This document shows positions 3,964 through 39,225 of a stretch of 39,225 nt of DNA, piece after piece (the first letter of the stretch is position 1; each line of letters opens with the position of its first letter). Made by a program: the position numbers and the translations under genes. The stretch is taken from positions 1-39,225 of the IMG/VR virus record IMGVR_UViG_2703718821_000012. One strand, written 5' to 3'. The notes below the pieces were generated by a model. That model saw only the letters and a list, made by a program, of their open reading frames with translations, had not been told where the DNA came from and ran no database searches. This DNA comes from a virus (lineage: Duplodnaviria > Heunggongvirae > Uroviricota > Caudoviricetes).

Positions 3964-4849
3964 TGGCAACCTCCAGTTTCGCTTTGCATTCTATGTAAAT
4001 GGCTTGTACGTTCTGCTGCAATTTCATTCCAGATGTCAGGCGATATGCTTCTGCAAAATATCGCTTCAAATCATCCATGTTTTCTGCCTGAGCCATTTCA
4101 TCACAAAGAAGTTGTGCTTTTTCCATAATTTCCTGCTGGCGTTTCCGTTCATCTTCGCGGATATCTTCCTCTGATTTGTGCGGCATAACTGGTTCCTGAT
4201 GCATACCTTCATCTTCGTTAAGCAGGTGAATGGCATTATCCAGTCGCTGGGCTTTAGGCCAGTATTTGCTGGCGCGTTTAACTATTGTTTTACGCGCCAT
4301 CTCTTCCCAGAATGTCTTCCACGGTCCATTCTTTGCCTTGCTCGTTGCTTCCACAGCTTTAATTTCTGCCAGACTCATTTCTTCAGTGAGGTAGTCACCA
4401 TCTGCTGTTTTAACCGTACAATAACCACCAACAATAGAGCCTCGCTCACCAAATGCGTTGTATTTGTGGGTTGGTGCTGAATCAAGGCCGTTTGATTCAT
4501 AGGTGTCGTTTGAGTACACCAGTTTGCATTGCCCCCACTTAATTGATCCTGTCGACTGTGCAAGGTGAAGTAATCCCATGTAACTGATATCAAGGCACAC
4601 CATGCCGTCGCGAGGAACCAGATAAGCCAGTTTGCTGGCCGGGTTTAAGGTGATGCCGATCGCCGCAACATTGATGATGGCGTTCTGTGCGCTGGTTGGA
4701 TTTGCCAGTGCTGTTTTAGCCAGGTAATCGTTTTTCTGGAAATACTGAATTGCAAACTGGCTTTCCTTAGCCCATGTCACCGTCTGTTCAGTCAATGCTC
4801 CGCAGAATAACTGCTCTTGCTGTTTAACGAATTCAACGATATTGCTCAT
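3947..4849 (-). CDS. recT: RecT-family single-strand annealing recombinase
   Basis: 300 aa; motif NGPWKTFWEEMARKTIVKRASKYWP matches the conserved RecT core (compare Rac RecT NGPWVTHWEEMAKKTAIRRLFKYLP). Confidence 0.85.
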   Translation of the reverse strand: MSNIVEFVKQQEQLFCGALTEQTVTWAKESQFAIQYFQKNDYLAKTALANPTSAQNAIINVAAIGITLNPASKLAYLVPRDGMVCLDISYMGLLHLAQSTGSIKWGQCKLVYSNDTYESNGLDSAPTHKYNAFGERGSIVGGYCTVKTADGDYLTEEMSLAEIKAVEATSKAKNGPWKTFWEEMARKTIVKRASKYWPKAQRLDNAIHLLNEDEGMHQEPVMPHKSEEDIREDERKRQQEIMEKAQLLCDEMAQAENMDDLKRYFAEAYRLTSGMKLQQNVQAIYIECKAKLEVASEQTI

Positions 4850-5157
4850 GCAGCTTCTCCATAAATATGTCTACGTTTGAATATTGCGAAGGCATATTCA
4901 GCCTTAACTCTTTCGGTTATTGCATCCCAGAACCATTCAGCGGCTTTTTCCTGATAGTTACAGTCATCATCTTCCAGCCAGTCGATAGCGTCCTTAGTGT
5001 GTTCATCTGGTTTATATGAGCGAAGCATTTCGCTTATTGGGTCGCAACGTTTGCAGAGGCGATCAACTTCACTGTTGATTCGTTCGTAATCATCATCGGT
5101 AAAACTTGCGATGATTTGCGATATTTCACGCTTATCATTCAGAGTCAGAATCATCAT
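4846..5157 (-). CDS. Hypothetical acidic protein upstream of recT (103 aa)
   Basis: ATG at 5157/5154 preceded by GGAG; acidic, Trp-rich; position equivalent to anti-RecBCD genes in other phages (inference only). Confidence 0.5.
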   Translation of the reverse strand: MMILTLNDKREISQIIASFTDDDYERINSEVDRLCKRCDPISEMLRSYKPDEHTKDAIDWLEDDDCNYQEKAAEWFWDAITERVKAEYAFAIFKRRHIYGEAA

Positions 5158-6313: not shown

Positions 6314-6736
6314 TTACTTAACCAATGATGCTGCATATTCAATTAGGAATAACTTAGGTGCAAGCCAAATCTTCAACCATTCGAAATTGAAGGCGATAAT
6401 TGAAACGCCAATAATTGAGCCAAATACAGGAGCAAATACGGTGCATATATCGTAATAAAACGAAGATATAAAATATCTATCATTTGGACATCCATCGAAA
6501 GACGTCCATCTCTCGCCATTATTTCTTGCCGTTCTTGCAAAACTAGGAAGTTTTATTGCTGCAATTAAAAGCAACAACCCAGTCACTTGGGAAAGTGCGC
6601 TATGGACAAAACTCCATATTAGCAACTGATGAACAACATCAGGAATCTGTGCCTGGCTAAATGAAACAGCCGCGTCTATTCCATTGCTGGCTTTTTGCAG
6701 TAGTTCTACGAGAATCTTGTTTGCTTGTTCTTCCAT
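6314..6736 (-). CDS. Two-TM membrane protein (140 aa), possible SieB-like exclusion protein
   Basis: ATG preceded by GAGGTGA; hydrophobic segments VTGLLLLIAAIKLP and VFAPVFGSIIGVSIIAFNF; immediately downstream of N; AT-rich. Confidence 0.55.
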   Translation of the reverse strand: MEEQANKILVELLQKASNGIDAAVSFSQAQIPDVVHQLLIWSFVHSALSQVTGLLLLIAAIKLPSFARTARNNGERWTSFDGCPNDRYFISSFYYDICTVFAPVFGSIIGVSIIAFNFEWLKIWLAPKLFLIEYAASLVK

Positions 6737-6744
6737 ATATCACC

Positions 6745-7071
6745 TCAAATAAGTGGTTTGCTGCCTAATTTCATTTTCTGGCGACCAACACAAGTCACAC
6801 CCATTTCACTGCGTGGCTTGCTGTACCATGTGCGCTGATTCTTGCGTTCAATACGTTGCAGGTTGCTTTCAATCTGTTCGTAGTATTCAGCCAGCACCGT
6901 AAGGTCTATCGGATTCAGTGCGCTTTCTACTCGTGATTTCGGTTTGCGATTCAGCGAGAGAATAGGGCGGTTAACTGGTTTTGCGCTTACCCCAACCAAC
7001 AGGGGATTTGCTGCTTTCCATTGAGCCTGTTTCTCTGCGCGACGTTCGCGGCGGCGTGTTTGTGCATCCAT
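6745..7071 (-). CDS. N: Antitermination protein N
   Basis: 108 aa MDAQTRRRERRAEKQAQWKAANPLLVGVSAKPVNRPILSLNRKPKSRVESALNPIDLTVLAEY..., near-identical to lambda N including the Arg-rich RNA-binding motif. Confidence 0.92.
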   Translation of the reverse strand: MDAQTRRRERRAEKQAQWKAANPLLVGVSAKPVNRPILSLNRKPKSRVESALNPIDLTVLAEYYEQIESNLQRIERKNQRTWYSKPRSEMGVTCVGRQKMKLGSKPLI

Positions 7072-7228
7072 CTGGATTCTCCTGTCAGTTAGCTTTGGTT
7101 GTGTGTGGGAGTCGTAGTCCTGAACGAAAACACCCCGCAATGGCACATTGGCAGCTAATCCGGATTCGCACTTCCGGCCAATGCTTCGTTTCGTATCACA
7201 CACACCAAAGCCTTCTGCTTTGAATGCT

Positions 7229-7259
7229 GCCCTTCTTCAGGGCTTAATTTTTAAGAGCA
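7229..7259 (-). promoter_or_regulatory. nutL (boxA and boxB)
   Basis: Minus strand reads TGCTCTTAAAAATTAA GCCCTGAAGAAGGGC: boxA-like element plus boxB hairpin as in lambda nutL. Confidence 0.8.
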
Positions 7260-7298
7260 TCACCTTCATGGTGGTTAGTGCGTCCTGCTGATGGCTTA

Positions 7299-7371
7299 AA
7301 ATTACAAGAAAGATTGTATGTTGTAAACAAGAAATATTGTAAAAAGAGGAGTGAAAAACAAACTCCGTTGT
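7299..7371 (-). promoter_or_regulatory. OL operator cluster with pL
   Basis: Three ACAA-N6-TTGT sites (7304..7317 ACAAGAAAGATTGT, 7327..7340 ACAAGAAATATTGT, 7358..7371 ACAAACTCCGTTGT) matching 434-type operators; candidate leftward -35 TTTACA / -10 TAATTT. Confidence 0.6.
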
Positions 7372-7421
7372 TTTTAAACGGAAAATAGTTTGTTTTTTGG
7401 TTATCGAAATTGAGGTGGGGA

Positions 7422-8774
<1,353 letters not shown>

Positions 8775-10189: not shown

Positions 10190-11562
10190 AACAGGATATC
10201 GAAGCGAGCGTTATCGGTGGCCTGCTGATTGGTGGATTAACTCCAACCGCCAGCGACGTTCTGGCAACACTGGAGCCGGAAGCGTTTTCAATTCCGCTCT
10301 ACCGGAAAGCCTTCGAGGTTATCCGCAAGCAGGCGCGAAACAGAAACCTAATCGACGCGCTGATGGTTGCTGAGGAATGCGGAGAGGAGCATTTCACGTC
10401 AATCCTGATGACCAGCAAAAACTGCCCGAGTGCCGCAAACCTGAAGGGATATGCCGGAATGGTCGCGGATAACTATCACCGCCGTCTGGTGCTGGAAATC
10501 ATGGACGAAATGCGTGAACCAATTCAGAGCGGAACCATCGACGCATCGAGTCAGGCGATGGATGAGCTTGTAAAGCGTCTCTCAGTCATCAGAAAGCCCC
10601 GTGACGAGGTTAAACCTGTACGGTTAGGGGAAATCATCACTGACTACACTGACACGCTTGACAGGCGTCTGAGGAACGGAGAAGAGTCCGATACCCTGAA
10701 GACCGGAATCGAAGAACTTGACGCTATCACCGGAGGGATGAACGCGGAAGACCTGATGATTATCGCCGCTCGTCCTGGTATGGGGAAAACCGAACTGGCG
10801 CTGAAGATTGCCGAAGGTGTTGCAAGCCGCGTTATTCCTGGTTCTGACGTCCGGCGCGGGGTATTGATTTTCTCAATGGAAATGAGCGCATTGCAGATTG
10901 CAGAGCGAAGCATTGCCAACGCCGGGAGGATGTCGGTTAGCGTACTGCGAAATCCTGCATCGATGGATGACGAAGGCTGGGCACGTGTTGCTAACGGCAT
11001 GAGTCAGCTTGCAGATTTGGATGTATGGGTAGTCGATGCCTCGCGGTTATCGGTCGAAGAAATACGCTCAATCGCAGAACGGCACAAACAGGAAAATCCA
11101 AACCTCTCACTCATCATGGCGGATTATCTTGGCCTGATTGAGAAGCCGAAAGCAGACCGCAACGACCTCGCAATTGCTCACATCTCCGGAAGCCTGAAGG
11201 CGATGGCGAAAGACCTGAAAACGCCTGTTATCTCCCTGAGTCAGCTTTCGCGCGATGTTGAGAAGCGACCAAACAAACGCCCGACAAACGCAGATTTGCG
11301 TGATTCAGGAAGCATTGAACAGGACGCAGACTCAATCATCATGCTCTATCGGGAAGCGGTATATGACGAGAACAGTAGCGCCGCGCCATTTGCTGAAATC
11401 ATTGTGACAAAAAACCGTTTTGGCTCACTTGGTACGGTTTACCAGCGGTTCTGCAACGGACACTTTGTTGCATGTGACCAGGATGAAGCCAGACAGATTT
11501 GCACAGCATCAAATGCACCTGCTGCACGTGGCAGACGATATGCACAAGGGGCTGACGTATGA
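10186..11562 (+). CDS. DnaB-type replicative helicase (P22 gp12-like)
   Basis: 458 aa; Walker [18 protein letters not shown]; DnaB-like N-terminal domain; ATG overlaps upstream stop (ATGA). Confidence 0.9.
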
Positions 11563-11587: not shown

Positions 11588-11620
11588 AGGCCTGCTGGTA
11601 ATCGCAGGCCTTTTTATTTG
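11588..11620 (+). terminator. Rho-independent terminator (tR2-like) after replication genes
   Basis: Hairpin AGGCCTGC-TGGTAATC-GCAGGCCT followed by TTTTTATTTG. Confidence 0.55.
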
Positions 11621-11827: not shown

Positions 11828-12049
11828 GTGAATATGAGCACACTCGCAGACCTTATTCATGCCGATATGGCTGAAGATGGAGCAAGGCGTAATAGGTACT
11901 GGAAATCATCGAGACTTCCAGTTTGTGAAAGATTCAACCACAGGCCAAAACCAAAACGTAGCCGACGAGACAAAGTGTTGAAAAAACTCATGCAAATTAA
12001 CATGGCTGGTTTTGTCAGATTCGTGAGTGAAACGACTAACGGGGATTGA
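11828..12049 (+). CDS. Hypothetical nin-region protein (73 aa)
   Basis: ORF with basic stretch KPKRSRRDKVLKK; stop adjacent to next start. Confidence 0.45.
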   Translation: MNMSTLADLIHADMAEDGARRNRYWKSSRLPVCERFNHRPKPKRSRRDKVLKKLMQINMAGFVRFVSETTNGD

Positions 12050-12050
12050 T

Positions 12051-12371
12051 ATGGACGAATCAAGAAAGCAGTTTGAAGAAAGTTGGTTGCGACGTGGAGG
12101 CGAATCTTCAGACCTTATCCGTTACCCTGAAAATCACCATGAAATTGGCAGCGGTAATATTGGTAGTCAATACGTGATGGTCGATGTTCAAGGCCACTGG
12201 CAAACGTGGCAGGCATCGCGATCAGCTATTGAAATAACCGCGCCAAAGTTTATCGACAGCAGAGAAGCATTAGCCAAAGGGTTTACTGTTGATTATTCCA
12301 ATGGCTTCGGTGATGCAATGGATGCTTATGAGGAAAACATCCGCGCTGCTGGAGTCAAAGTGAAGGAGTAA
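12051..12371 (+). CDS. Hypothetical nin-region protein (106 aa)
   Basis: ATG at 12051 directly after upstream stop; MDESRKQFEESWLRRGGESSDLIRYPENHHEIG... Confidence 0.45.
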   Translation: MDESRKQFEESWLRRGGESSDLIRYPENHHEIGSGNIGSQYVMVDVQGHWQTWQASRSAIEITAPKFIDSREALAKGFTVDYSNGFGDAMDAYEENIRAAGVKVKE

Positions 12372-12784: not shown

Positions 12785-12957
12785 GACGACAGCGACGAAT
12801 TTTCACCGACATCATCTGCGAAAACTGCAAATACCTTCCAACGAAACGCTCCAGAAATAAACGCAAGCCAATCCCAAAAGAATCTGACGTAAAAACCTTC
12901 AACTACACGGCTCACCTGTGGGATATCCGGTGGCTAAGACATCGTGCGAGGAAATGA
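12781..12957 (+). CDS. ninE: NinE-like small protein
   Basis: 58 aa [58 protein letters not shown]; ATGA overlap with ninB stop; assignment from recall. Confidence 0.6.
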
Positions 12958-13331
12958 CAATGGATTATTCACAGTTAAGTGATTTTGAAATTAACAAGCG
13001 AGTAGCAGAGGTTATTTATAAAGACAGGAATGGTCTATTTGTTGCCAGAAATCTCCCTAGCAAGGAAGGAGTAACGATTGTTGCAGAAGTTAATTCTGAA
13101 TATATCTGCATAGCGGCAGCTGACTACTGCAACAACCCGGCAGACGCATGGCCGATTATCACTGAAAACAACATCAGCATAATTTTAGACAATCCCTCAA
13201 TGCCGTGCGCCACAGACAACGCAAGGGACTTGTTTGATGATGCCGGACCGAATGTTGGTGTCGCATATGACAATCCACTCCGCGCCGCCATGATTGTCTT
13301 TCTCATGCTGCAGGACGCCAATAATGCTTAG
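12954..13331 (+). CDS. ninX: NinX-like protein
   Basis: About 125 aa from [23 protein letters not shown]...; ATG overlaps upstream stop; position matches P22 ninX. Confidence 0.5.
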
Positions 13332-13503
13332 CCCATCCCAATCCATTCAATACCAGAAAGAAAGCGTCGAGCGAGCTTTAACGTGCGCTAACTGCGGTCA
13401 GAAGCTGCATGTGCTGGAAGTTCACGTGTGCTCCGATTGCTGCGCAGAACTGATGAGCGATCCGAATAGCTCAATGTACGAGGAAGAAGACGATGGTGAT
13501 TAG
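13324..13503 (+). CDS. ninF: NinF-like zinc-ribbon small protein
   Basis: 59 aa [59 protein letters not shown] with CxxC...CxxCC motif. Confidence 0.6.
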   Translation: MLSPSQSIQYQKESVERALTCANCGQKLHVLEVHVCSDCCAELMSDPNSSMYEEEDDGD

Positions 13504-13885
13504 CCGATACGGACAAATAACGTTTAAACATTTTCAAGACAATCCAACATGGGCTGCTGCGGCTGGATATGACTTTAATTATTTTGATTGTCTGTCAGTC
13601 GCATGTATTGCAACTACCAATGTTGCTAACAACATAATCGATGAATTCTTGGATTTTCCAGACTATCAGGTCAGAGAGTTGCCTGCATTTTTTGTGAAAG
13701 TATCTGTTGCTACAGCTCTGTTATTTATTTTGTTATTCGCATATCCATTGCTTGCCGTATTTGTTTATGTGAGATGCAAGCACTCACAAAAGGAATACAG
13801 CGGAGAGCATACCGATATTACCAGCCAAAATATGCGAGTGTGGTTGAGGAGATGCCAAGAGAAATGGGGGAGACGTCATGGCTAA
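13493..13885 (+). CDS. Hypothetical membrane protein (130 aa) inserted between ninF and ninG
   Basis: ATG overlaps ninF 3' end; C-terminal TM segment [24 protein letters not shown]; no lambda counterpart at this position. Confidence 0.5.
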
Positions 13886-14483
13886 ACCAGCGCGAAGGAA
13901 ATGCAAAATATGCAAGGAATGGTTTCACCCGGCATTCTCAAATCAGTGGTGGTGCTGCCCGGAACACGGAACTCAATTAGCACTCGAACGACGAAGCAAA
14001 GAACGCGAAAAAGCGGAAAAAACAGCAGAGAAGAAACGACGACGAGAGGAGCGGAAACAGAAAGATAAACTTAAGATTCGAAAACTCGCCTTAAAGCCCC
14101 GCAGTTACTGGATTAAACAAGCCCAACAAGCCGTAAACGCCTTCATCAGAGAAAGAGACCGCGACTTACCATGTATCTCGTGCGGAACGCTCACGTCTGC
14201 TCAGTGGGATGCCGGACATTACCGGACAACTGCTGCGGCACCTCAACTCCGATTTGATGAACGCAATATTCACAAGCAATGCGTGGTGTGCAACCAGCAC
14301 AAAAGCGGAAATCTCGTTCCGTATCGCGTCGAACTGATTAGCCGCATCGGGCAGGAAGCAGTAGACGAAATCGAATCAAACCATAACCGCCATCGCTGGA
14401 CTATCGAAGAGTGCAAGGCGATCAAGGCAGAGTACCAACAGAAACTCAAAGACCTGCGAAATAGCAGAAGTGAGGCCGCATGA
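13878..14483 (+). CDS. ninG: NinG (Rap-family recombination endonuclease)
   Basis: 201 aa; Cys-rich N-terminus [11 protein letters not shown]...WWCCPEHG and conserved core matching lambda NinG/Rap. Confidence 0.85.
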
Positions 14484-14686
14484 CGTTCTCAGTAAAAACC
14501 ATTCCCGACATGCTCGTTGAAGCATACGGAAACCAGACAGAAGTAGCACGCAGACTGAAATGTAGTCGCGGCACGGTAAGAAAATACGCTGATGATAAAG
14601 ACGGGAAAATGCACGCCATCGTCAACGACGTTCTCATGGTTCATCGCGGATGGAGTGAAAGAGATGCGCTATTACGAAAGAATTGA
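14480..14686 (+). CDS. ninH: NinH
   Basis: 68 aa [68 protein letters not shown], near-identical to lambda NinH. Confidence 0.88.
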
Positions 14687-15335: not shown

Positions 15336-15844
15336 GAGAACTAAACCTCACCAAAGAGCAGCACGATTGGCTGAATGGCTGGCTTGAACTGTGGGGTGCA
15401 TGGGTTTACTCAGGTCGCCTGGAAAAGCGCATGAGCAGCGTAATAGCGAAGTTCATGGAGAGCGTAGAGCCGGGAAGAGTTATGACAAGGCCAATGTGTA
15501 ATGATGATGATGGAATGTTGATTTCTCAGGTCGTCGATTCCGTCATGTGCATTGACAAGAAAGCCTTTGGCATCCTCCTCAGCTACTACGCTCATGGTTC
15601 ATCTAAGCGAGCAATTGCATCCTACTATCACGCGACTGCAAAGCCACGCAAGATGTGTGGACGTGGTGGCGAGGGATGGAGAAAACCTTCACTGGCAACC
15701 TGTAGAAACGAAATTGACGACATCCTGAAAGCGTCGTTATTTGTTTTGTACCAGCCAATGCAAAATGCTTTCAAAATGCGTAAACGTGTTGAGAAAGTTA
15801 AGCATGTTGCTGTTAAAAGCCTTGACATGCAATTATCCATTTAG
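15326..15844 (+). CDS. Q: Late-gene antiterminator Q (non-lambda Q type)
   Basis: 172 aa; GTG start overlapping ninI end; directly upstream of pR'/tR'-like leader and lysis cassette; Cys pairs suggest zinc binding; assignment mainly by synteny. Confidence 0.6.
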
Positions 15845-15851
15845 CCATAAT
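15822..15851 (+). promoter_or_regulatory. Late promoter pR' candidate (with qut region)
   Basis: -35 TTGACA (15822..15827), 18-bp spacer, -10 CATAAT (15846..15851), overlapping the Q stop. Confidence 0.4.
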
Positions 15852-16440: not shown

Positions 16441-16764
16441 ATGAAGATGCCAGAAAAACATGACCTGTTAGCCGCCATTCTCGCGGCAAAGGAACAAGGC
16501 ATCGGGGCAATCCTTGCGTTTGCAATGGCGTACCTTCGCGGCAGGTATAATGGCGGTGCGTTTACAAAAACAGTAATCGACGCAACGATGTGCGCCATTA
16601 TCGCCTGGTTCATTCGCGACCTTCTCGACTTCGCCGGACTAAGTAGCAATCTCGCTTATATAACGAGCGTGTTTATCGGCTACATCGGTACTGACTCGAT
16701 TGGTTCGCTTATCAAACGCTTCGCTGCTAAAAAAGCCGGAGTAGAAGATGGTGGAAATCAATAA
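16441..16764 (+). CDS. S: Holin S (lambda S107/S105 dual-start type)
   Basis: 107 aa [62 protein letters not shown]..., near-identical to lambda S including MKM dual start. Confidence 0.95.
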
Positions 16765-17224
16765 TCAACGTAAGGCGTTCCTCGATATGCTGGCGTGGTC
16801 AGAGGGAACTGATAACGGACGTCAGAAAACCAGAAATCATGGTTATGACGTCATTGTAGGCGGAGAGCTATTCACTGATTACTCCGATCACCCTCGCAAG
16901 CTTGTCACGCTAAACCCCAAACTCAAATCAACAGCAGCCGGACGTTATCAGCTTCTTTCACGCTGGTGGGATGCTTACCGTAAGCAGCTTGGCCTGAAAG
17001 ACTTCTCCCCCAAAAGCCAGGACGCAGTGGCATTGCAGCAGATTAAAGAACGTGGCGCTTTACCGATGATTGATCGCGGTGATATCCGTCAGGCAATCGA
17101 CCGTTGCAGCAATATCTGGGCTTCACTGCCTGGCGCTGGTTATGGTCAGTTCGAGCATAAGGCTGACAGCCTGATTGCAAAATTCAAAGAGGCTGGCGGA
17201 ACGGTCAGAGAGATTGAGGTATGA
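16748..17224 (+). CDS. R: Endolysin R (lytic transglycosylase)
   Basis: 158 aa [104 protein letters not shown]..., near-identical to lambda R. Confidence 0.95.
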
Positions 17225-17658
17225 GCAGATTAACCGCGATTATCTCCGCTCTGGTTATCTGCATCATCGTTTGCCTGTCATGGGCTGTTAATCATTACCG
17301 TGATAACGCCATGACCTACAAAGAGCAGCGCGATAAAGCCACATCCATCATCGCTGATATGCAGAAGCGTCAACGTGATGTAGCAGAACTCGACGCCAGA
17401 TACACAAAGGAGCTTGCTGATGCTAACGCGACTATCGAAAGCCTCCGTGCTGATGTTTCTGCTGGGCGTAAGCGCCTGCAAGTCGCCGCCACCTGTGCAA
17501 AGTCAACGACCGGAGCCAGCAGCATGGGCGATGGAGAAAGCCCAAGACTTACAGCAGATGCTGAACTCAATTATTACCGTCTCAGAAGTGGAATCGACAA
17601 GATAACCGCGCAGGTTAACTACCTGCAGGAGTACATCAGGACTCAGTGCCTGAAATAA
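17221..17658 (+). CDS. Rz: Spanin inner-membrane subunit Rz
   Basis: 145 aa; N-terminus [30 protein letters not shown] matches lambda Rz; coiled-coil periplasmic domain. Confidence 0.9.
17414..17605 (+). CDS. Rz1: Spanin outer-membrane lipoprotein subunit Rz1 (embedded in Rz, +1 frame)
   Basis: 63 aa; signal peptide plus lipobox-like LGVSAC, then Pro-rich [16 protein letters not shown]; fully embedded in Rz as in lambda. Confidence 0.75.
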
Positions 17659-33841: not shown

Positions 33842-34327
33842 TTATCTGATGTTACTGCTACTGTTGCATGTGACTGTATTTCCAAACCCTGAATTGCAGT
33901 TTGTGTAAGTGTCAACTCGTGTTGGATAGGGTTGAGTTATAACAGGCTGTCTCGCTTTTTGCTCGATCGCTTGCATTGTGTTTACAGCCTGATAATTCAA
34001 TAAAGCCTGCTGGAATGCTTGGCTTTGTGCTATTTGTTGTGCTTGTTCTTGGCTTTGTAATTGAACATAAAGATTCTGAAGCTCAAGTCTTGCCTGTGCG
34101 TCACTTATCTTGCCTTCATCGACACCTTGCCCGAGCATCTTTGCAGCAAGGACATACAGTTTAGGTGTTGGTGCTGATGCCATGCGTGAGTCGTTCTTCA
34201 CACTGGCATCAAGGCAATTAGCCATATCGCTAAGCTTTTGATAGCGTTGTTCGCAACTTGCTTGATAGTCACTTACTTTTGCGCATCCAACCAGCAGAAG
34301 CGGGATAATTAACAGTGATTTTTTCAT
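33842..34327 (-). CDS. Predicted outer-membrane lipoprotein (161 aa), candidate exclusion / lysogenic conversion factor
   Basis: MKKSLLIIPLLLVGC lipoprotein signal with lipobox LVGC, Ala at +2; AAGGAG upstream; Gln-rich coiled region; opposite strand to late operon, downstream of mnt. Confidence 0.6.
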   Translation of the reverse strand: MKKSLLIIPLLLVGCAKVSDYQASCEQRYQKLSDMANCLDASVKNDSRMASAPTPKLYVLAAKMLGQGVDEGKISDAQARLELQNLYVQLQSQEQAQQIAQSQAFQQALLNYQAVNTMQAIEQKARQPVITQPYPTRVDTYTNCNSGFGNTVTCNSSSNIR

Positions 34328-34397
34328 ATGGTTAACTCTCCTTAGTTTTTCACAGGATAGCATGAAGGCAATGCCATTTTAGCCGGAAACTAGATTT

Positions 34398-34664
34398 CTA
34401 TGTTTCCTTTTTATTATTGCTATACATGGTCTTAAGCGTTTCAAAAACCATTTTCTTAACCATATCAGATTGTTGTTCTGCCATACGCTCTGCATCGTCA
34501 ATGTAAACGGATGCAGAGCTTTGTTTAGCCAACGATTCTTCAATCGCTGCAATTATCTCTGAGTTCAGCGATCTGTTATTCATCTTCGCACGCTGCTTAA
34601 TTTTCGCGTGGAGTTCATGCGGAAGTCTCAAGTGAAACTGCGCCTCATCGTATTTGCTGTACAT
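34398..34664 (-). CDS. mnt: Mnt-like ribbon-helix-helix repressor
   Basis: 88 aa MYSKYDEAQFHLRLPHELHAKIKQRAKMNNRSLNSEIIAAIEESL...DDAERMAEQQSDMVKKMVFETLKTMY aligns with P22 Mnt (NDAERLADEQSELVKKMVFDTLKDLY); RBS GGTGAGG. Confidence 0.75.
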   Translation of the reverse strand: MYSKYDEAQFHLRLPHELHAKIKQRAKMNNRSLNSEIIAAIEESLAKQSSASVYIDDAERMAEQQSDMVKKMVFETLKTMYSNNKKET

Positions 34665-34737
34665 CCTTGATGCCTCACCAGTTGGGTGGAATGGCATCGT
34701 AACCTACTGGATAAATACTCAATAGTACCATTTCGGT

Positions 34738-36648: not shown

Positions 36649-37755
36649 CTACTTGTTAAACCTGCACTCTATGTGTTTATAAGTAAATGCAGATGCTAAG
36701 ATCGTTATTGAAAGACAAATCACAGAGTATATTATTAACTGAGTTGTGTTTGTTTCAGACAGATTAACAAACTTAGAGGCTATTCTGTAAAATACATGCA
36801 GCACTGGTTGATGCAGTAAGTAAATGCTATAGCTAATTTCCCCTAAGAAAGCGATAGACGGAATGCTTAATAACCTTGGTTTTAGCACAACGCAAGACGC
36901 AAACATAAGTGATATCATGATAAATCGATAAAAGCTATATTGTTTTACATCGAAATAGAATGACATATAAAACAAAAACGCAAAAACTATATATATAACT
37001 GCTCTAAGTGATGTTTTTTCTATGTTTATTTCTTTGATTTTTGCGCAAAGAGCCCCAGCTACAAAGTACGACCACAACACTTTATCTTCATAGAAATCGT
37101 TGATCAATACAAAGCACCCAAAAGCAATTACCATGTACTTGAATTTTTTAGTATAGAGAGCAGTCGCTAAGAATGGGATAGATGCATAAAACTTCCACTC
37201 ATATGGGAGTGTCCACAATACTATATTTAAAGTAGCATCTCTATGTGCGCCCCAGTATAGCTCAGTTCCAAAAAAACCAAACCCAAATATTTTAAGTAAT
37301 TGAGTGACAAATAAAGGAAGGTCTAATTTCCCTAACATCTGTGAAAAATATATTACAGATATTAAAGTAGCGGTAAATAGATATAATGGAACTAATCTCT
37401 TTATTCTTTTTGCGTAAAATGATGTAAAGTCTATTTTATTATTTGAAAGTATTTTTGAAGAGAACAGAAATCCAGTTATGCAAAAAAATATCTGAACACC
37501 CAAGGCACCAGATTGGCTGAAAAGATAAAAGTTAGAGTAATCAATATTCTTAGTTTTTATCAACATATCACCAATGGCGTAAGCAGAGTGGTTGATGAAA
37601 ACGGCGATACATGCAAAACCCCTGAGTCCTTCAATGTACTGAATTTTGCCCTGATCTGTAGACTTTCTAATGAAAATAGATGTTGCCATTATTGGTACAG
37701 CAAGCATGACCAAATAGATGCAAAAGAAAGACAATTGGTAGTTATAAAGCGGCAT
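36649..37755 (-). CDS. oac: Integral membrane acyltransferase, family 3 (O-antigen acetyltransferase-like)
   Basis: 368 aa; about 10 hydrophobic segments; motif YIEGLRGFACIAVFINHS near N-terminus typical of acyltransferase-3; strongly AT-rich; next to tailspike and attP. Confidence 0.75.
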   Translation of the reverse strand: MPLYNYQLSFFCIYLVMLAVPIMATSIFIRKSTDQGKIQYIEGLRGFACIAVFINHSAYAIGDMLIKTKNIDYSNFYLFSQSGALGVQIFFCITGFLFSSKILSNNKIDFTSFYAKRIKRLVPLYLFTATLISVIYFSQMLGKLDLPLFVTQLLKIFGFGFFGTELYWGAHRDATLNIVLWTLPYEWKFYASIPFLATALYTKKFKYMVIAFGCFVLINDFYEDKVLWSYFVAGALCAKIKEINIEKTSLRAVIYIVFAFLFYMSFYFDVKQYSFYRFIMISLMFASCVVLKPRLLSIPSIAFLGEISYSIYLLHQPVLHVFYRIASKFVNLSETNTTQLIIYSVICLSITILASAFTYKHIECRFNK

Positions 37756-38067: not shown

Positions 38068-39225
38068 CTATGACACCTTCTCATCAAGCCAATCCGCCCA
38101 CCACTGCATCATTTCTCTGCGCTTATCGAGATACTGCGCATGGTTGTAAATACCGCGCACAGATCCGCCGTTGGCATGTGCCAGCTGCACTTCAATAGCG
38201 TCAGCAGGCCATTCGTGCTCGTTCATAATCGTGCTGAATTCATGCCTGAATCCGTGACCGCTTTCCAGACCCTCATAGCCGATTTGTTTGATCACAAGCA
38301 ATACCGCGTTCTCGCAGATTGGCTTCTTCTTATCGTTGCGCCCGGCAAAAACAAACTCTGAGACTGGTTTGGTGATTGAGCTTAGCGTAGTGAGAAGTTC
38401 AACCACCTGGTCCGACATCGGGACCACATGAATCTTGCGTCCCTTCATCACACTGGCGTCGATGGTGATAATCCTGTTTTCAAAATCGACGTTCTTCCAT
38501 TGCATGGAACGAAGCTCTTTCGTTCTTAGGGCTGTGTAGCGTAAGACTTTGGTCGCAATGAGCGATACGATACTTCCTGAAAATGTTGCCAGTGCTTTGT
38601 TGAATGCCGGGATCTGGTCTGCTGGAAGAAACGGGAAGTTCTTCTTGCGGTATCCTTTCATGGCGTCTGCAAGGTCAGGTGCCGGGTTATATTTAGCCCT
38701 TCCGGTGACAATAGCGTAACGAAAAACCTCGCCGCATCTTCTGCGGGCTTTATTGGCTCGTTCCATTGCACAGCGATCTTCAAATCTGCGGATTACTTCC
38801 AGCAGTTGCATCGGCTCAATATCCTGAATCTCAAGACCGCCGATGATGGGCAAAATGTCGTCATCAAACATTTTGGCAAGTTCAGTCGCATAGCCTACTG
38901 ACCAGACTTGCTTCTTGTGCTCGTACCATTCCTTGTATATTGCACTAAAGGAATTGTTGTTAGACGAAGCCTTTTTCACTTTTACTGGATCGATGCCAAC
39001 CGAGATGTCTTTCCTCGCAGTCCATGCCTTATCCCTTGCTTCCTGCAAAGTCATAAGCGGATATTTTCCGACAGTCAGGATTTTCTCCTTACCGTCAATC
39101 TTGTAGCGAAGCTGCCATACCTTTTTCCCTGATACAGGGACATAAAGGTACAGGCCATTACCATCGAGTAGGCGGTATGGTTTTTCTTTCGGCTTTGCTG
39201 CTTCAATCTGCTTAACGGTGAGCAT
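38068..39225 (-). CDS. int: Tyrosine integrase, P4-like family
   Basis: 385 aa starting MLTVKQIEAAKPKEKPYRLLDGNGLYLYV (typical P4-type N-terminus); catalytic-region motifs HGFRHEFST and C-terminal Tyr; ATG is the last 3 nt of the window. Confidence 0.9.
   Translation of the reverse strand: MLTVKQIEAAKPKEKPYRLLDGNGLYLYVPVSGKKVWQLRYKIDGKEKILTVGKYPLMTLQEARDKAWTARKDISVGIDPVKVKKASSNNNSFSAIYKEWYEHKKQVWSVGYATELAKMFDDDILPIIGGLEIQDIEPMQLLEVIRRFEDRCAMERANKARRRCGEVFRYAIVTGRAKYNPAPDLADAMKGYRKKNFPFLPADQIPAFNKALATFSGSIVSLIATKVLRYTALRTKELRSMQWKNVDFENRIITIDASVMKGRKIHVVPMSDQVVELLTTLSSITKPVSEFVFAGRNDKKKPICENAVLLVIKQIGYEGLESGHGFRHEFSTIMNEHEWPADAIEVQLAHANGGSVRGIYNHAQYLDKRREMMQWWADWLDEKVS

Follow-up and report, generated by a model that had tools for sequence, protein, structure and literature searches.

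A small gene for a probable membrane protein spliced between ninF and ninG of a tailed-phage genome

The stretch of DNA analysed here, positions 1 to 39,225 of virus record IMGVR_UViG_2703718821_000012 (Caudoviricetes), derived from a P22-like Escherichia coli prophage and referred to below as the window, carries between ninF and ninG a 130-codon open reading frame (ORF; 13493..13885, + strand, ATG start) that we regard as almost certainly a real gene, and its presence there can be attributed with the same high confidence to an insertion at an ATGG junction. The nin region has been described as a pool of 30–50 non-essential genes, about ten of which are found in any one phage, with overlapping stops and starts (PMC5630979, PMC8022706), and by the layout of its two junctions the 130-aa gene is to be read as a translationally coupled member of this mosaic pool. 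The product belongs to protein group PHROG 2638 and is very probably a membrane protein. Our working interpretation, which is tentative and to which we attach rather less than even weight, is that the nin pool supplied a functional accessory gene, spliced in at the ninF/ninG boundary, whose product would be an early inner-membrane protein acting on the envelope.

The ninF/ninG boundary and the inserted gene

The evidence for the insertion comes from direct comparison of the window with phages in which the two flanking genes adjoin. In the window, ninF (13324..13503, +; 59 aa, annotated as such in the RefSeq record of an identical copy) ends ...GAA GAA GAC GAT GGT GAT TAG at 13503, inside the start of the 130-aa ORF, which opens ATG GTG ATT AGC at 13493, giving an overlap of 11 nt. 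At its other end the ORF closes with ...CGT CAT GGC TAA at 13885 and overlaps by 8 nt the rap-type recombination nuclease gene ninG (13878..14483, +), which starts ATG GCT AAA at 13878. The placement given in the first-pass annotation of this DNA, an ORF overlapping the ninF stop and preceding ninG, was therefore exact in its coordinates. That annotation had also stated that in lambda ninF is followed directly by ninG, and this is the arrangement seen in HK544 and APC_JM3.2, whose flanks are ~95–97% identical to those of the window and whose NinF and NinG genes adjoin directly, with an 8-nt overlap. Alignment of the junction places the inserted segment at 13497..13881 (+), an exact 385 bp, with 4-nt ATGG repeats at 13493-13496 and 13878-13881 (+) on either side: the relatives read ...GAGGAAGAAGACGATGG joined directly to CTAAACCAGCG..., whereas the window reads ...GAGGAAGAAGACGATGG, then TGATTAG and the remainder of the ORF as far as GACGTCATGG, and only then CTAAACCAGCG.... 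The suggestion that the nin region had received an insertion was thus upheld by comparison of nin regions.

The consequence of this arrangement is that the Shine–Dalgarno sequence GAGGAA (13480..13485, +), which serves ninG in the insert-free phages HK544 and APC_JM3.2, here serves the 130-aa ORF with a GAGGA-to-ATG spacing of 8 nt, so that the former ribosome site and ATG of ninG now open the 130-aa ORF, while the last 8 nt of that ORF restore the ATGGCTAA start of ninG. NinF itself is lengthened by one residue, ending ..DDGD rather than the ..DDG of insert-free phages. The G+C content of the ORF is 40% (37% at third positions) against 45–50% (47–57%) in its neighbours, which is consistent with a foreign origin. 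A transposable or homing element was considered as the source and rejected, the only repeat at the junction being the 4-nt ATGG; a scan of the insert ends found no terminal inverted repeats and no direct repeats longer than ATGG, and the HNH gene that adjoins the homologue in some other loci is not found beside it in this window.

Among phage records the cassette is rare. A Megablast search with positions 12900-14500 matched 535 of them, none spanning the ORF, and the ORF DNA alone matched a single one, that of Klebsiella phage phiKp_30, a sewage isolate belonging to Lederbergvirus. Among 5426 complete Escherichia coli genomes the ORF DNA occurs at 41 places in 37 genomes, and ninF DNA occurs at 2116 places in 1692 of these genomes, so that about 2% of ninF copies have the ORF with them. 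The possibility that the first-pass annotation had set against its own proposal, namely that the gene is a widespread conserved component of the nin region, is therefore not what these counts describe.

A second junction is found in the enteropathogenic strain EPEC E2348/69, in which the same cassette, carrying with it the final ~70 nt of ninF, is followed not by ninG but by ybcO/DUF1364, a gene that also starts ATGGCTAA. On the aligned sequences, this joint is a signature of recombination at conserved gene-boundary sequences; with recombination placed at a gene boundary, translation of the operon stays intact. A functional link of the 130-aa protein to NinG or YbcO was also considered and rejected: the common ATGGCTAA recombination joint explains the adjacency, which is missing outside lambdoid phages. 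The nin region of the E2348/69 prophage (locus L002) is heavily rearranged in other respects. A complete ninF is followed there by a fragment of an HNH pseudogene and then by another ninF copy, which lacks its 5' end and is fused to the cassette (4299-5011 of that locus); further downstream, on the opposite strand, lpxR, encoding a lipid A deacylase, interrupts an antiterminator gene (6432-7391).

The window contains 71 ORFs of at least 90 aa, many of them antisense or spurious, so ORF length alone is no proof of a gene. We base our confidence in this one on its full-length match to the PHROG 2638 hidden Markov model (HMM; E=4.7e-55, 186 bits, residues 9–127 aligned to profile positions 2–120 of 120), on the existence of homologues at 16–57% identity, and on a pN/pS of ~0.22. 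The last value was obtained from 13 distinct near-identical alleles with 12 synonymous and 10 non-synonymous variable sites, set against 81 synonymous and 309 non-synonymous sites available (3.8 times more non-synonymous); across the hydrophobic helix and the conserved N-terminal motif the changes are synonymous only. In a 100% identical E. coli copy (locus L001, RefSeq) the order NinF, hypothetical protein, recombination protein NinG is annotated, within the wider series NinB, methylase, NinE, NinX, NinF, ORF, NinG, phosphatase and Q; the order in the window is helicase (ending at 11562), ninB, ninE, ninX, ninF, ORF, ninG, ninH, phosphatase and Q, all co-oriented. The exact 130-aa protein is present on 374 contigs, each time labelled 'hypothetical protein'.

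The protein family and its predicted structure

The homology search proposed in the first-pass annotation thus led to PHROG 2638, a group of unknown function that is unnamed and has no Pfam or NCBIfam model. The 130-aa protein is a full-length member, and relative to the PHROG profile the window copy and its closest relatives have 8 extra N-terminal residues, predicted to form a beta-hairpin. A word-indexed search of 5.8 billion proteins returned 12 relatives, 44 clusters at 50% identity were obtained when 1.84 billion cluster representatives were searched exhaustively with an HMM, and full-length members range from 99 to 134 aa. When one genome per species was searched (185,579 species), six loci were found, all in Enterobacterales: Dryocola, Pseudocitrobacter (two copies), Xenorhabdus (two) and Escherichia sp. 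From IMG/VR, 142 loci were confirmed, of which 80 were retrieved. The two homologues of Pseudocitrobacter faecalis (NZ_QNRL01000004.1, loci L094 and L095) are 36% and 33% identical to the query, lie ~285 kb apart on one contig and presumably sit in two different prophages of one genome. An invariant block in the N-terminal part is found in the nine closest sequences, and P18 and G25 do not vary in an alignment of 43 sequences, the most distant at 16% identity, in which F14, A21, Y26 and D32 are kept in at least 90%.

Searches for a relative of known function gave little. The PADLOC scan of the 130-aa protein returned 0 matches, and nothing rose above threshold in the Pfam and NCBIfam scans, in which the sub-threshold hits, Kinocilin and ATP synthase subunit c, were driven by the hydrophobic segment. 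When the 43 members were scanned against Pfam, LapA_dom was matched by three of them at E=0.004 and was rejected as transmembrane-composition noise. The best match in a profile search against PDB sequences had E=1.7, neither these nor the Pfam searches found a DNA-binding domain, and fold searches of the AlphaFold model against PDB and BFVD gave no significant match. A 'conotoxin' label carried by the homologue in a Yersinia phage was discounted, family searches of the 130-aa protein having returned nothing of that kind, and in the literature we found nothing on the 130-aa protein or on PHROG 2638.

The predicted architecture is nevertheless well defined, in that AlphaFold models built from a 9-sequence alignment (pLDDT 80.8) and from a 43-sequence alignment (pLDDT 91.9, pTM 0.75) agree in secondary structure. 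The predicted elements are a beta-hairpin at residues 2–9, helices at 11–16 and 18–23, a loop with a GYDFN motif, and helices at 30–53, 60–101 (42 residues) and 108–129. The most conserved portion of the family is the N-terminal part, codons 10–35 (13520..13597, +), which includes the six residues named above; the N-terminal part has a net charge of −5. The single strong hydrophobic segment, codons 66–93 (13688..13771, +; Kyte–Doolittle 19-mer maximum 2.61), comprises 28 hydrophobic residues and lies inside helix 60–101 of both models; its length is 27–29 residues across the family and 28 in 37 of the 43 members. It is preceded by a loop that is acidic family-wide (0.22 D/E and 0.10 K/R per residue) and holds a conserved VRELP motif, and is followed by a basic tail, codons 94–130 (13772..13882, +), with 9 K/R in 37 aa and an amphipathic helix (aa 108–129) at its end. 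Family-wide the tail has 0.25 K/R per residue, some distant members have tails of 11–20 residues, and most of the non-synonymous polymorphism falls in this part. Within the transmembrane helix a Pro/aromatic/Gly pattern (YP..., PF.FW..G) is conserved, which suggests specific packing of the helix with itself or with a partner.

The first-pass annotation had described a C-terminal transmembrane helix. Of this, the helix stands, being supported by hydropathy across the 43 members, but it is not C-terminal, since the 37-aa basic tail comes after it. The same tail, with its 9 K/R, is longer than the ~30-residue limit for a tail-anchored inner-membrane protein, and that class was rejected. A two-span hairpin using helix 2 (aa 31–53) was likewise discarded because this helix has charged residues in all 43 members (1–7; 3 here) and is hence amphipathic, as was a Cys/His metal site formed by H13, C33, C95 and C121, which are conserved only in the closest subgroup. 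For the orientation of a single-span protein, the positive-inside rule, applied to the basic tail and the acidic loop before the helix, gives a slight preference to an N-out/C-in topology.

Expression, genomic context and possible function

A scan of the window for promoters and terminators found sites no more often than in shuffled sequence, and none flanking the ORF. Two sites bracket the nin block: a strong terminator-like hairpin with a T-run (11588..11611, +), just after the DnaB-type helicase gene and upstream of the block, at what we take to be the position of lambda tR2, and an 11/12 match to a sigma-70 promoter, resembling PR' (15822..15851, +), at the end of the Q gene, where it marks the downstream limit of the early-right operon to which the ORF belongs, Q being annotated in the identical L001 region. 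A homologue of the N protein is encoded at 6745-7203 (−). Because the ORF has no promoter or terminator of its own, lies between the tR2-like terminator and Q, and shares the genome with an N homologue, it would be transcribed from PR only after N-type antitermination, and we consider delayed-early, lytic-only expression of the 130-aa gene likely.

Neighbouring genes were called and clustered in 77 loci. In lambdoid loci the upstream neighbour is variable (NinF, NinX, NinE, NinB or an HNH gene), and on the downstream side the usual neighbours are NinG, in 12 loci, and YbcO/DUF1364, in 13, in many cases with RusA next; in phiKp_30 a DNA-binding protein intervenes. Two unknown proteins flank the homologue in P1-like phage-plasmids, represented by SJ46, RCS47 and numerous IMG/VR contigs, and close by are a DUF551 protein and a homologue of the polymerase III theta subunit. 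In Yersinia phage P840 it lies among exonuclease and methylase genes, with exodeoxyribonuclease VIII nearby, in Proteus Gorganvirus phages it lies between exoribonuclease and nuclease/primase genes, and one distant member, encoded downstream of a CI-like repressor gene, has rdgC and ssb as its neighbours. The upstream gap is at most 10 nt, or an overlap, in 56 of 77 loci, as is the downstream gap in 62 of 75, and the larger values are mostly artefacts of crude gene calling. No neighbour was kept across phage backbones in the 77 loci. The homologues thus share an operon-embedded early-gene setting and are not an autonomous cassette, and the family is common to temperate (lambdoid and P1-like) and apparently virulent phages of Enterobacterales. 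In a Proteus Gorganvirus phage no integrase or CI-type repressor is annotated in the 51 kb viewed of the 54-kb record, which argues for a role in the lytic cycle. The apparently virulent siphovirus vB_PmiS_PM-CJR of Proteus (loci L005 and L099) carries, besides a PHROG 2638 homologue, two DUF2591 (NinX-family) genes, and an exchange of nin-pool genes between temperate lambdoid and non-lambdoid phages is suggested.

In terms of the envelope-directed interpretation given at the outset, ribosomes at the ninF stop meet the former Shine–Dalgarno sequence and ATG of ninG, which now open the 130-aa gene, and the product would be delayed-early in lytic growth and absent from the lysogen. It would be a single-pass inner-membrane protein with an N-terminal module of ~65 aa (a short hairpin, two short helices and a long amphipathic helix), an acidic juxtamembrane loop with VRELP, a 28-residue transmembrane helix and a cytoplasmic basic tail. 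At a guess, the transmembrane helix and the N-terminal module might dock on a host inner-membrane component and so alter the infected cell's envelope at an early stage of lytic growth. This would most plausibly take the form of a block to the entry of superinfecting phage DNA in the style of T4 Imm/Sp, or of some other takeover of the envelope. Such an exclusion or envelope-takeover function is possible rather than probable. Equally tentative is the suggestion that the protein is the first representative of a family of early phage inner-membrane proteins that has so far gone unrecognised, with a fold not seen before and a specific envelope function in lytic growth, whether superinfection exclusion or anti-defence, exerted through intramembrane binding of a host protein.

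With T4 Imm/Sp, P22 SieA, HK97 gp15 and phi29 p16.7 the likeness is confined to a shared general logic, that of a small inner-membrane protein of a phage. In lytic infection the T4 proteins Imm and Sp appear early, so their timing fits that deduced here, and like P22 SieA they are small phage inner-membrane proteins; neither they nor SieA have any sequence or fold similarity to the 130-aa protein, and SieA is expressed from the prophage. With the nin genes of lambda and P22 (ninA–ninI, ninX/Y/Z) the 130-aa gene shares its slot between the replication genes and Q, its orientation and its stop/start overlaps, and like them it is judged non-essential, being absent from most relatives; it differs in being homologous to no named nin gene, in being rare and in encoding a predicted membrane protein, the named nin proteins being, to our knowledge, soluble. 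As a case of lambdoid mosaicism it is ordinary, one more interchangeable nin gene, but with a clean junction that shows by example how a phage operon whose genes are translationally coupled can take up a new gene and still be expressed. A small family with a confident predicted structure, no fold match and members in several unrelated phage types is moreover a candidate for a new early membrane function, and its presence in EPEC E2348/69 and in an isolated phage makes experiments feasible.

Several observations weigh against this interpretation. Every source names the protein 'hypothetical protein' and none annotates a function, and the timing of expression is deduced from gene position only. 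An N-out orientation requires export of the 65-residue N-terminal part without a signal peptide, and some distant members have more K/R in the N-terminal part than in the tail. Finally, 3 of 23 IMG/VR copies at 96–100% identity have premature stops, all in the basic tail: Q112* in two copies and C120* in one (L018 and L023, 4001-4393; L029, 513-905; two different alleles). The N-terminal module and transmembrane helix are intact in all three, but the nonsense codons imply that some prophages, at least, can do without the gene.

When the operon setting is considered, the possibility arises that the protein is a membrane tether for phage DNA transactions, its basic cytoplasmic tail binding DNA or a replication or recombination protein according to the logic of phi29 p16.7/p1. 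Four unrelated phage backbones place the gene among recombination and replication genes, the neighbours being ninG/rap or ybcO-rusA directly downstream, rdgC and ssb, exonuclease, nuclease and primase genes, or exodeoxyribonuclease VIII and a methylase, and the tail is strongly basic. In phi29, p16.7 is a 130-aa membrane protein that organises phage DNA replication, so that the two are similar in size, in having a single transmembrane helix and in being encoded by an early gene among genes of DNA metabolism. However, p16.7 has the reverse architecture, with an N-terminal transmembrane helix and a C-terminal DNA-binding domain, belongs to a phage of an unrelated host clade and has no detectable homology to the 130-aa protein. 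The early operons of tailed phages consist largely of genes of this kind, so that the neighbourhood says little, none of the neighbours is shared by all contexts, and the tail, in a protein with no detected DNA-binding domain, is the least conserved part and tolerates truncation. We therefore consider the tether improbable.

We give the same low weight to an early inhibitor of host growth or cell division, similar in logic to Kil and anchored in the membrane like SidA, YneA and SosA. For a small early protein the intramembrane Pro/aromatic motif would suit specific helix–helix binding to a membrane machine, and selection against a toxic product could explain why some prophages carry nonsense alleles; yet most copies are intact and under purifying selection, and there is no homology to any known inhibitor. 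Less probable again is a counter-defence protein that, in lytic growth, would neutralise a host effector of abortive infection or defence that is bound to the membrane. The early expression proposed above, the patchy accessory distribution and the occurrence in both temperate and apparently virulent phages fit anti-defence genes generally, but specific evidence is lacking and there is no association with a particular host defence locus.

The insertion between genes that adjoin in relatives, with a G+C content below that of the surroundings, recalls the morons as Hendrix and Juhala used the term, and the encoded protein might then be expressed from the prophage and protect the lysogen by superinfection exclusion, as do P22 SieA and HK97 gp15. 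HK97 gp15 is a small inner-membrane protein, as is predicted here, although the two have no sequence similarity. Morons are expressed in the prophage from their own promoter and have their own terminator, whereas the 130-aa gene lacks both and is coupled in translation to each of its neighbours; with both ends overlapping the neighbours there is no intergenic space, and an autonomous moron was rejected on these grounds. Furthermore, the gene lies beyond a terminator in the early-right operon, which is repressed, homologues occur in the Proteus phage mentioned above, in the viewed part of which no integrase or repressor is annotated, and no PADLOC model was matched. An exclusion function of this prophage-expressed type is accordingly rather remote.

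Deletions in the nin region of phage Sf6 shorten the time to lysis, an effect not tied to any particular gene (PMC5630979), and a predicted small membrane protein could in principle be an antiholin-like modulator of lysis timing. This is very unlikely, as the gene lies outside the lysis cassette, the window ORFs at 16441-17658 matching the holin, lysozyme and Rz-type genes annotated downstream of Q in L001, and homologues co-occur with unrelated lysis systems in different phage types. That the ORF is a chance or decaying one without function, as the uniform 'hypothetical protein' labels and the premature stops in three close copies might suggest, can be dismissed as next to negligible in view of the residues that are near-invariant family-wide, the low pN/pS, the confident and consistent structure prediction and the preserved translational coupling.

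Other features of the window

Elsewhere in the nin block, a DUF7301 ORF (11828-12049, +) overlaps by 23 nt a GTG-initiated 114-aa ORF belonging to PHROG 343 (12027-12371, +), a region whose counterpart in the related E. coli prophage L001 is annotated as a frameshifted restriction-alleviation gene of the Lar family. ARAGORN found no tRNA genes in the window, and an Rfam scan of its whole length found no RNA family. In locus L001, whose ORF allele is identical, tRNA-Asn and tRNA-Thr lie immediately downstream of Q (8238-8393 of that locus), and the prophages of the window and of L001 therefore differ in mosaic modules despite their common cassette.

Two further loci bear on other prophage functions. 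A 173-aa ORF with a lipoprotein signal (MKKSLLIIPLLLVGC) at 33842-34363 (−) adjoins a gene for an Mnt/Arc-type repressor (34398-34697) and matches PHROG 6067, a group of unknown function, with no Pfam match. It occupies the slot that presumably holds sieA in P22, and it is a candidate for an exclusion lipoprotein expressed from the prophage. At the far end of the window a membrane acyltransferase of the Acyl_transf_3 family adjoins a tyrosine integrase (36649-37755 and 38068-39225, both −), and this acyltransferase probably represents a lysogenic-conversion gene for O-antigen acetylation, located beside the prophage attachment end.

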